Shown here: one piece after another, positions 24,145 through 26,412 of the stretch
Layout: each line of letters opens with the position of its first letter
Position numbering within the stretch: the first letter of the stretch is position 1
From: Escherichia coli
Lineage (GTDB): Bacteria > Pseudomonadota > Gammaproteobacteria > Enterobacterales > Enterobacteriaceae
Strand: one strand, 5' to 3'
Assembly: GCF_044324875.1 (NCBI RefSeq)
Contig: NZ_CP172185.1
DNA length: 64,000 bases
Position numbers and translations under genes: made by a program
Notes under the pieces: model-generated
Seen by the model: the letters and a program-made list of their open reading frames with translations, nothing else
The model's database searches: none
What the model was told of the DNA's origin: nothing

Positions 24145-25161
24145 ATGTCCACATTACGCCTGCTCATCTCTGACTCTTACGATCCGTGGTTTAACCTGGC
24201 GGTGGAGGAGTGTATTTTTCGCCAGATGCCCGCCACGCAGCGCGTTCTGTTTCTCTGGCGCAATGCCGACACGGTAGTGATTGGTCGCGCACAGAACCCG
24301 TGGAAAGAGTGTAATACCCGGCGGATGGAAGAAGATAACGTCCGCCTGGCGCGGCGCAGTAGCGGTGGCGGCGCGGTGTTCCACGATCTCGGTAATACCT
24401 GCTTTACCTTTATGGCTGGCAAGCCGGAGTACGATAAAACTATCTCCACGTCGATTGTGCTTAATGCGCTGAACGCGCTCGGCGTCACCGCCGAAGCGTC
24501 CGGACGTAACGATCTGGTGGTGAAAACCGCCGAAGGCGACCGCAAAGTCTCAGGCTCGGCCTATCGCGAAACCAAAGATCGCGGCTTCCACCACGGCACC
24601 TTGCTGCTCAATGCCGACCTTAGCCGCCTGGCAAACTATCTCAATCCGGATAAAAAGAAACTGGCGGCGAAAGGCATTACGTCGGTACGTTCCCGCGTGA
24701 CCAACCTCACCGAGCTGTTGCCGGGGATCACCCATGAGCAGGTTTGCGAGGCCATAACCAAGGCCTTTTTCGCCCATTATGGCGAGCGCGTGGAAGCGGA
24801 AATCATCTCCCCAGACAAAACGCCAGACTTGCCAAACTTCGCCGAAACCTTTGCCCGTCAGAGTAGCTGGGAGTGGAACTTCGGTCAGGCTCCGGCGTTC
24901 TCACATCTGCTGGATGAACGCTTCACCTGGGGCGGCGTAGAACTGCATTTCGACGTTGAAAAAGGCCATATCACCCGCGCCCAGGTGTTTACCGACAGCC
25001 TCAACCCCGCGCCGCTGGAAGCCCTCGCCGGGCGACTGCAAGGCTGCCTGTACCGCGCGGATATGCTGCAACAGGAGTGCGAAGCGCTGTTGGTTGACTT
25101 CCCGGAACAGGAAAAAGAGCTACGGGAGTTGTCTGCGTGGATAGCGGGGGCGGTAAGGTAA
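24145..25161 (+). CDS. lplA: Lipoate-protein ligase A
   Basis: 338 aa; [57 protein letters not shown]... Confidence 0.95.
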
Positions 25162-25192
25162 CTCGCTGATTAAAATATCCAGGGAAGGAAAT

Positions 25193-25456
25193 ATGATCGA
25201 TCTGGAAAACCAGGAACGGGAGATTATCAATTTAATGTTCAGCCAGGGTATATCATGGCTAACCGCCGTGCGTATCAGGCATAAACTATCACTTGCTGAA
25301 GTAAGTAAAATGTTAGGTATCTCCATTAATTCTCTAATACAGATCGAAAAGACGGAACGGCTTAGTTCAAACATCAAAAGCAAAATGGCAGGAATTTATG
25401 GTTGTCCACCAGAGTTGCTGATATGCCCTTCCTGGATGACGGCTGAACATAAATGA
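25193..25456 (+). CDS. XRE-type helix-turn-helix small protein (87 aa), at the K-12 yjjJ position
   Basis: agggaagg 5 nt before ATG; LSLAEVSKMLGISINSLIQIEKTE resembles HTH_XRE; followed by AT-rich non-coding DNA. Confidence 0.55.
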   Translation: MIDLENQEREIINLMFSQGISWLTAVRIRHKLSLAEVSKMLGISINSLIQIEKTERLSSNIKSKMAGIYGCPPELLICPSWMTAEHK

Positions 25457-25551
25457 ATAGATTCGTGAATAGATACTTGAATGTATTTTATTTTCTATCC
25501 ATATGAAAAATAATAGTGAATCTATAAATCAGTTGCTATTGATGAATAGAT

Positions 25552-25582
25552 ACTAAAAAGCCGGAGCAGTCCCCCACTCCGG
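25552..25582 (-). terminator. Rho-independent terminator downstream of deoD
   Basis: Minus strand gccggagtgggggactgctccggc followed by ttttt. Confidence 0.65.
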
Positions 25583-25616
25583 CTTAACACGACGTTCGCC
25601 TTTCAGCAAAACACAA

Positions 25617-26336
25617 TTACTCTTTATCGCCCAGCAGAACGGATTCCAGTGCGATTTTGATCATGTCGTTGAAGGTGGTCTGACGCTCAGCGGCAGTGGT
25701 CTGCTCGTGAGTGCGGATGTGGTCAGATACGGTACAGATGGTCAGGGCTTTCGCGCCAAATTCTGCAGCGACGCCGTAGATACCAGCTGCTTCCATTTCC
25801 ACGCCGAGGATGCCGTATTTTTCCATCACGTCGAACATTTCGCCGTCCGGAGAGTAGAACAGGTCAGCGGAGAACAGGTTACCAACGCGAGCATCAACGC
25901 CCAGTGCTTTAGCCGCGTCTACCGCGTTACGCACCATGTCAAAGTCAGCGATAGCGGCAAAGTCATGGTCTTTAAAACGGATGCGGTTAACTTTGGAATC
26001 GGTGCAGGCACCCATACCGATAACGACGTCGCGCAGTTTTACGTGTGGCAGAACAGCGCCACAGGAGCCTACGCGGATAATTTTCTTCACGCCGAAATCG
26101 GTGATCAGTTCTTTGGTGTAGATGGAGCAGGACGGGATACCCATACCGTGACCCATTACGGAAATTTTGCGGCCTTTGTAAGTACCGGTGAAGCCCAGCA
26201 TACCGCGAACGTTGTTCACTTCACGGGCATCTTCAAGGAAAGTTTCAGCAATATACTTCGCACGCAGCGGGTCGCCTGGCATCAAAACTACGTCAGCGAA
26301 ATCGCCCATTTCTGCATTAATGTGTGGGGTAGCCAT
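25617..26336 (-). CDS. deoD: Purine nucleoside phosphorylase DeoD
   Basis: 239 aa; [55 protein letters not shown]... Confidence 0.97.
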
Positions 26337-26339
26337 TGT

Positions 26340-26412
26340 TTTATCCTTATCAACATGTTTTCACCCTCTCCCTGTGGGAGAGGGCCGGGGTGAGGGCATC
26401 AAGCCGCACCCA
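26340..26412. repeat. Intergenic palindromic element between deoB and deoD
   Basis: ccctctccc-tgt-gggagaggg inverted repeat followed by ccggggtgagggc. Confidence 0.5.

Follow-up and report, generated by a model that had tools for sequence, protein, structure and literature searches.

YjjJ, also named HipH, is a HipA-family Ser/Thr kinase toxin with an N-terminal helix-turn-helix (HTH) (PMC8262856; PMC9948734) that "may bind DNA" (PMC8262856). The hipH promoter is reported to respond to cyclic di-GMP (c-di-GMP), and its control has been placed "at the promoter region", the element involved being unmapped (PMC11452175). Overexpression of HipB is also reported to rescue YjjJ toxicity (PMC9948734), and reviews describe both the control of hipH and the target of its HTH as unknown. 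Here, we describe the interval between lplA and deoD in one Escherichia coli genome (NCBI RefSeq assembly GCF_044324875.1, contig NZ_CP172185.1), as seen in a stretch of 64,000 nucleotides (nt) hereafter called the window. In this interval (i) a gene encoding an XRE-family HTH protein of 87 amino acids (aa) occupies the slot in which K-12 carries hipH (yjjJ); and (ii) short direct repeats, hereafter called boxes, follow the gene. On balance, the interval is best explained, with somewhat better than even confidence, as the XRE-type haplotype of an either/or islet, in which the boxes are very likely orphan HipH operators and the XRE protein may have taken over the control module.

The other well-described point of comparison is hipBA, where HipB, an XRE protein of 88 aa, binds TATCC-N8-GGATA operators and in this way autoregulates the operon. 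The locus in the window is similar to hipBA in that a small XRE protein of nearly equal size is encoded beside the putative operator repeats of a Hip-kinase promoter. Nevertheless, its repeats are direct 9-mers at 12-bp spacing and not HipB palindromes, no toxin gene is adjacent, and the XRE gene is convergent to the promoter instead of lying upstream within the operon. With the hipH haplotype the window has in common the slot and the upstream module, but it lacks hipH, and its resident protein, which is unrelated to HipH and lacks a kinase domain, is encoded on the opposite strand.

The lplA-deoD slot is an either/or islet that holds hipH on the minus strand or the unrelated 87-aa XRE gene on the plus strand, and the two cassettes abut the same module of ~130 bp beside the deoD terminator. 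In K-12-type genomes yjjJ fills the slot, as the earlier note on this DNA had correctly stated, with its stop abutting the lplA stop and its start codon beside deoD. A search with LplA of one genome per species gave 80 Enterobacteriaceae loci, which were classed by tblastn. A short gap (<=130 bp) was found in 49 species, among them E. whittamii, Salmonella enterica subspecies arizonae and diarizonae, and many Citrobacter, Klebsiella and Enterobacter; just one of these gaps holds even a one-mismatch box. The gene hipH is placed and oriented as in K-12 in E. albertii (95% identity to K-12 YjjJ), Pseudocitrobacter (69%), Kosakonia and Leclercia (62% each), Silvania (60%) and a Citrobacter (59%), while the 87-aa gene lies in the slot in a divergent Escherichia (85%), Superficieibacter (50%) and Enterobacteriaceae UBA3516 (48%). 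Further XRE lineages came from protein searches: (i) an 87-aa orthologue (P0081, locus L014) whose genus is unassigned; (ii) a Salmonella enterica form whose lplA is closest to that of subspecies diarizonae; and (iii) one whose lplA is closest to that of Klebsiella. All of these added lineages have the order serB-ytjB-lplA-XRE-deoD, and the XRE gene is always in the lplA-deoD slot. No locus with both genes, the putative ancestor, was found among the XRE-type and hipH-type loci examined. Elsewhere in the survey (L015-L094) the gap is a hotspot of variable cargo, including arrays of repetitive extragenic palindromes (REP) and RAYT-type transposases (L042, L093, L068, L077), fimbrial-subunit-like genes (L047, L070), a secreted protein of 406 aa (L076), inserts of >5 kb (L022, L066, L071) and further ORFs of unrelated kinds.

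Across genera, the XRE open reading frame (ORF) has a third-position bias and a ratio of non-synonymous to synonymous divergence (dN/dS) of 0.16-0.6, mostly 0.2-0.4; therefore, it is a real gene under purifying selection. In all XRE-type loci the stop codon TGA is also the first three bases of box 1, an overlap that gives them one common junction and, probably, one origin.

The two haplotypes become homologous at the yjjJ start codon (CAT, 25448-25450 in the window), and from there their homology, at 84-86% identity, spans the repeats and the terminator and reaches into deoD; therefore, the repeats correspond to the 5' region of yjjJ, which in K-12 reads CAT-TAA-TGAATAGATTCG-TGAATAGATACT-TGAATAGATTTA ... 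TGAATAGATACT-terminator. The 9-mer TGAATAGAT is found exactly three times in the window (25454-25462, 25466-25474 and 25543-25551), where 0.44 copies are expected and none of 100 shuffles reaches three; copies with one mismatch are no more frequent than chance. The earlier note had the number of repeats and the first position right, whereas the second and third, given as 25469 and 25545, were off by 3 and 2 nt, respectively. Box 3, which is degenerate in the window, reads TGAATGGAT or TGAATAGAT in other E. coli.

When the modules of 11 loci were aligned, the E. coli XRE-type locus shared its box positions (0, +12, +24 and +88/89) with all seven hipH-type loci, and two XRE-type lineages were short of one 12-bp unit (boxes at 0, +12 and +76). 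In the AT-rich spacer between boxes 3 and 4 the only conserved element is TGAAA-N-(G/A)TA-N-AG, present in the window as TGAAAAATAATAG. Within it, the minus strand carries a -10-like hexamer, TATTAT (25515 to 25510), which faces the XRE/hipH side and is TATACT upstream of K-12 yjjJ and TATAAT in L016. The window has the general layout of the module, that is, at least two boxes at 12-bp spacing and a distal box ~65 bp beyond the proximal array, with the -10-like element in between; the proximal boxes, however, do not abut a hipH start codon, since hipH is absent and box 1 overlaps the XRE stop codon instead. From the conserved -10-like element and this geometry only, we infer a minus-strand promoter that would have box 4 at about -41 to -49, a position that lacks a good -35, and boxes 3 to 1 at ~+16 to +48, ending 3 nt before the hipH ATG. 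The spacer of the window also contains TGAATCTAT (25517-25525), a partial inverted box (ATAGATTCA on the other strand) which is not conserved in other genera.

The boxes are found far beyond the Enterobacteriaceae slot. A pattern scan of metagenomes for two boxes at 12-bp spacing gave 120 hits, mostly GATA-type microsatellites, and seven of the 31 non-repetitive ones are directly upstream of hipH homologues (L100, L111, L143, L177, L184, L209, L210). The six of these seven that were scored against E. coli YjjJ have 34-41% identity, and their hosts range from 47 to 67% GC. In these loci the proximal ATCTATTCA boxes abut or overlap the start codon; where there is a single distal box, it lies ~54-66 bp upstream of the proximal set, and the loci differ in their number of boxes (2+1, 2+2, 5+1, or four in tandem). 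In all 15 HipH proteins compared, neither the recognition helix (SQ..SR) nor the wing (G.aR...Ya) varies. The fact that the boxes travel with hipH over such large distances, HipH being the only factor common to the hosts, makes it very likely that they are a HipH-family operator and that HipH autoregulates by means of its own N-terminal winged HTH; the layout of promoter and boxes also suggests autoregulation of hipH. No HipH operator is described in the literature found on HipH, and a full-text search for the motif gave only unrelated primers and shRNAs. To our knowledge, no E. coli motif matches the boxes. There is presumably a partial, unconvincing resemblance to the TorR box (CTGTTCATAT), and presumably no convincing one to the ArgR, Fur, OmpR and DnaA boxes.

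A single host-encoded DNA-binding protein, neither HipH nor the XRE protein, might instead read TGAATAGAT in both haplotypes. Such a factor would explain why the boxes are equally conserved beside two unrelated proteins, and it could also mediate the response of the hipH promoter to c-di-GMP, a response reported to depend on an unmapped element (PMC11452175). We nevertheless regard this third factor as very improbable: the boxes accompany hipH homologues as divergent as those of the metagenomes, in hosts of widely different GC content; HipH is the only factor guaranteed to be common to those hosts, and its recognition helix and wing do not vary. Moreover, the box array occurs once per E. coli genome, so that no regulon of arrays exists elsewhere in the species.

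As regards translation, hipH has no recognisable Shine-Dalgarno sequence in the K-12-type locus (L001, 3001-3045) or in L111 and L210, and the boxes come very close to the hipH ATG: in Enterobacteriaceae they stop 3 nt short of it, in L111 they are directly adjacent and in L210 they overlap with it. This arrangement suggests that occupancy of the operator would also occlude the initiation of hipH translation or, otherwise, that initiation is unusual.

Locus architecture was compared, as the earlier note had proposed, across 5426 complete E. coli genomes. The XRE allele is present in 4073 and yjjJ in 1348 of them. These counts add up to 5421, which leaves room for at most a handful of genomes with both; therefore, the two genes are effectively mutually exclusive and XRE-type E. 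coli are devoid of HipH. The XRE type is the majority haplotype of E. coli (about three quarters) and K-12 represents the minority state; to judge from O157/O145-like hits, enterohaemorrhagic E. coli (EHEC) O157 is XRE-type as well. The particular haplotype of the window (25100-25680) is rare, as only the O158:H23 strain CFIAFB20140388 is >=99% identical to it and the next best reaches 97.4%. The clusters nearest to its 87-aa protein contain E. marmotae sequences (97-98%), a hint that the allele may be old or introgressed. The protein also has an unusual I49, every other aligned allele having K49.

The XRE gene is eroding in part of E. coli. A CAG-to-TAG change in the recognition-helix region (Q50*; equivalent to 25338-25342 in the window; L008-L011) was traced by its exact 32-mer in 1691 of the 4073 XRE genomes, five of ten evenly sampled E. 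coli XRE alleles are annotated as pseudogenes, and numerous truncated protein clusters exist. These observations would also fit a gene that is dispensable in E. coli and on its way to loss, of which the window holds one still-intact copy. We consider this unlikely, given that intact E. coli alleles have a dN/dS of ~0.14-0.2 (from small counts) and that the length of exactly 87 aa has been kept in five of six lineages outside Escherichia (86 aa in the Superficieibacter-like one); besides, Q50* appears to be one clade-level event and not many independent hits.

Since hipH is missing here and, in XRE-type E. coli, from the rest of the genome as well, the boxes in the window would be orphan HipH operators. 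They have been kept all the same. Boxes 1, 2 and 4 and the -10-like element are retained in the XRE-type Escherichia, Superficieibacter-like, UBA3516 and Klebsiella-like lineages, in which the adjacent XRE gene is at or near saturation at its synonymous sites (synonymous divergence, dS, of 0.9 to >2). The spacers of the module are likewise near saturation, with identities of 0.39-0.49 (0.45 for E. coli against the others, 0.41 for one Escherichia haplotype against the other), and they cluster by cassette type and not by genus, with TGAAAAATA as the signature in XRE-type modules and TGAAAnGTA in hipH-type ones; the boxes are ~90-100% conserved in both types. In loci without either gene, the boxes are decaying or fused (L031, L034, L039). 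The retention of boxes next to saturated synonymous sites and near-random spacers, together with their decay in gene-less scars, argues for a constraint on the boxes in the absence of HipH.

The XRE protein is the simplest candidate reader of the orphan boxes, and it may have taken over the module, a step to which we give slightly less than an even chance. If so, it would bind boxes that begin at its own stop codon, and binding would silence the convergent promoter left behind, whose antisense transcription would otherwise run into the XRE gene and lplA.

Several observations weigh against a take-over. The XRE HTH and the winged HTH are unrelated folds, and it would be unusual for both to read the same 9-mer. 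The P0081 locus (L014) and the Salmonella loci L217/L218 keep an intact, constrained XRE gene beside a module that has collapsed to one fused box; therefore, the function of the XRE gene does not need the module in cis. Four aligned Q50* loci have three perfect proximal boxes, and Q50* is as frequent as stated above. Box 3 varies even between E. coli alleles whose ORF is intact, and a consensus sigma-70 scan called no promoter in the module of either haplotype, nor any good -35. Finally, the proximal boxes and the bases between them are identical in the XRE-type and hipH-type haplotypes of E. coli, with the exception of box 3, and gene conversion from the co-circulating hipH haplotype, rather than selection, could be behind this identity.

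From these facts an alternative can be built in which the boxes are vestigial HipH operators, left after the replacement of hipH and conserved in appearance because of limited time and/or gene conversion, while the XRE protein is functionally unconnected with the repeats and controls other targets or just its own gene. In its favour, comparably constrained XRE genes exist where the module has been lost (L014, L217/L218), L013, L016 and L029 are missing complete 12-bp units, box 3 is degenerate both here and in the majority of E. coli alleles whose ORF is intact, boxes 1 and 2 and their inter-box bases are identical between haplotypes beside a spacer of ~41% identity (a mosaic pattern), and the two DNA-binding folds are unrelated. 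Nevertheless, we hold it to be rather unlikely: boxes 1, 2 and 4 and the -10-like element are kept in at least three XRE lineages despite the dS values and near-random spacers given above; the spacer signature of each cassette type makes the module seem inherited with the XRE gene and not re-imported; scars without either gene visibly decay; and, as a two-plus-one box layout is also found in distant, functional hipH loci, unit loss is not necessarily decay.

A take-over by the XRE protein could, in a still more speculative version, be part of an old allelic dimorphism of toxin and "anti-toxin" across Enterobacteriaceae. According to it, a self-regulating HipH would alternate with an XRE repressor convergently specific for the HipH operator, which would silence resident and incoming hipH promoters (allelic immunity or anti-addiction), the two alleles being maintained by balancing selection and exchanged by recombination via the conserved flanks. 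We see this scenario as quite unlikely.

Regarding the resident protein itself, the 87-aa sequence belongs to the XRE/Cro-C1 family by both profile and fold. Pfam HTH_3 (PF01381) matches residues 25-76 with an i-Evalue of 5.2e-5 and is precomputed for most homologues. The AlphaFold2 model (pLDDT 89.6) has an XRE/Cro-C1-type helical fold with an HTH unit, in which helices 22-29, 34-41, 45-54, 59-69 and 73-76 make up the five-helix XRE core, with an extra N-terminal helix (4-18) and an extra C-terminal one. The top Foldseek matches of the model are all XRE proteins, the best ones being restriction-modification C proteins, CylR2, P22 c2 and SinR (probability ~1.0, TM 0.55-0.76 over the HTH core). 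These are small dimeric repressors or activators that act on short repeats, and SinR also binds tandem direct repeats; however, their identity to the 87-aa protein is just 15-30% and their contexts differ.

Neither PADLOC nor NCBIfam provides a specific family for the 87-aa protein; K-12 YjjJ, for its part, matches NCBIfam NF007297 at 2.7e-203, and the HigA profile TIGR02607 gives the orthologue P0081 18 bits, far below the cut-off of 47.7. Outside the lplA-deoD slot, the nearest relatives are P0085/P0116-type proteins, with 32-43% identity over the HTH core. The P0116 family (Pectobacterium, Pasteurellaceae; phrog_7241) consists of RelB-like plus HTH_3 antitoxins of 120-130 aa encoded beside ParE/RelE-type toxin genes. 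P0116 has an N-terminal RelB-like toxin-binding segment, which the 87-aa protein lacks; likewise, there is no toxin ORF in the 455-bp gap and the 87-aa gene has no toxin neighbour. The protein is best described as an orphan, antitoxin-like HTH. The box motif is absent from the promoter of the distant relative P0085. In Pectobacterium (L226-L228, 2170-2869), the 122-aa RelB-like plus HTH_3 proteins are encoded directly after an 86-aa ParE_toxin gene, with the toxin gene first, as in higBA; in L227 no toxin gene was called upstream.

The earlier note, which had found an 87-aa HTH ORF with a ribosome-binding site in a gap of ~450 bp, was borne out on these points (a 455-bp gap, and GGGAAGGA ahead of the ORF), and had offered three explanations for it: a truncated, HTH-only allele of yjjJ, a deletion scar, or a stand-alone regulator with its own repeat operators. 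The first of these is refuted, as the ORF is on the opposite strand, BLASTP aligns nothing of the 87-aa protein to YjjJ, and its five-helix XRE unit is of a different class from the winged helix of YjjJ (SQATFSRL helix and FGKARATRYAL wing), which in the HipH family is fused to a HipA-like kinase domain that the 87-aa protein does not have. More generally, a truncated or rearranged remnant of yjjJ keeping only its HTH has a negligible chance of being correct: what speaks for it, namely the K-12 yjjJ position and the presence of an HTH, is positional only, and homology between the haplotypes begins only at the yjjJ start codon and box 1. Furthermore, real truncations look different (E. coli WB61; L039). 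The scar idea holds for the repeat region, a remnant of the hipH promoter/operator, but not for the ORF, which is a conserved gene and not debris (dN/dS 0.14-0.4, syntenic in at least five genera). A stand-alone regulator is plausible as far as the protein is concerned, but the repeats would not be its own, for they accompany hipH genes across wide phylogenetic distances. The note would have been set aside by an unconserved ORF or by a locus identical in K-12; instead, the ORF is under purifying selection and K-12 has yjjJ.

The comparison with HipB-like proteins, also proposed there, detected no similarity either: HipB, with a query sequence entered by hand, gave no local alignment at E <= 100, and the 87-aa gene is flanked by lplA and deoD rather than lying, as hipB-type genes do, directly upstream of a hipA-type kinase gene with which it would be co-transcribed. 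A HipB-like identity was consequently rejected.

A truly truncated yjjJ does exist in E. coli WB61 (L230, NZ_CP020025.1, 1455-1646), where ~the first 146 nt, that is, the winged-HTH part, are left, fused near the end of lplA. The annotation calls this remnant a "transcriptional regulator" and a partial pseudogene; it is what the earlier note had imagined, though in another strain. In E. coli TB354 (L003, 3399-3857) an IS200C transposase gene lies between yjjJ and deoD, probably inside or beside the box module, since the match to the query was limited to its deoD-proximal 126 bp.

As a sequence feature, this haplotype is common in E. coli and has been annotated, but it is uncharacterised. As far as our searches reached, the putative HipH operator is new, and so is the recurrent alternation of hipH and the XRE gene on a shared control module across Enterobacteriaceae. 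The former provides a concrete operator candidate for HipH/YjjJ (9-bp ATCTATTCA boxes, 12-bp spacing, 3+1 layout around a promoter), which makes the control of hipH and the target of its HTH directly testable. In three quarters of E. coli, major pathogen lineages among them, there is no hipH at all, and a small uncharacterised regulator sits on its control region instead; hence, conclusions on HipH-dependent persistence drawn from K-12 or from some uropathogenic E. coli (UPEC) strains do not transfer to most strains. The alternation, in turn, is a tractable natural case in which a toxin gene has been swapped for a regulator with its cis-elements preserved.

The features of the interval and its flanks are collected in Table 1.

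Table 1. Positions in the window of the lplA-deoD interval, its flanking genes and the elements of the box module.
Feature	Position	Strand	Basis
lplA (lipoate-protein ligase), upstream flank	24145..25161	+	ORF list; annotation of identical genome
Shine-Dalgarno-like purine-rich stretch GGGAAGGA, ending 3 nt before the XRE ATG	25182..25189	+	sequence
87-aa XRE-family HTH gene, WP_001589645.1 (ATG start, intact)	25193..25456	+	ORF list, annotation, HTH_3 match, AlphaFold2 model, Foldseek
Box 1, TGAATAGAT (ATCTATTCA on the hipH-sense strand)	25454..25462	+	
Box 2, TGAATAGAT + ACT (= TGAATAGATACT), 12 bp after box 1	25466..25477	+	
Box 3, degenerate TGAATGTAT, 2 mismatches	25478..25486	+	
Conserved spacer element TGAAAAATAATAG	25504..25516	-	alignment of 11 modules; spacer comparison
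Box 4 (distal), TGAATAGATACT, 89 bp from box 1	25543..25554	+	
deoD intrinsic terminator hairpin	25558..25585	-	terminator scan, inverted repeat; T-run on minus strand only
deoD (purine nucleoside phosphorylase), downstream flank	25617..26336	-	ORF list; annotation of identical genome

The gap (25162-25616) runs from the lplA stop (25161) to the deoD stop (25617), and the deoD terminator hairpin abuts box 4. In RefSeq, the resident protein is named "helix-turn-helix domain-containing protein". The terminator scan predicted no terminator between lplA and the XRE gene, which points to probable co-transcription of the two. An Rfam search of the gap at E <= 1 matched no RNA family. The codon-position pattern favours only the plus-strand 87-aa frame, and two minor ORFs (17 codons on the plus strand, ATG 25503; 26 codons on the minus strand, ATG 25450) were rejected, neither being conserved across genera; the ATG of the latter is the former hipH start position. 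Between deoD and deoB (26345-26400) there is a GC-rich palindromic repeat, CCCTCTCCCTGTGGGAGAGGGCCGGGGTGAGGG, which resembles the arrays that fill the lplA-deoD gap in L068 and L079.

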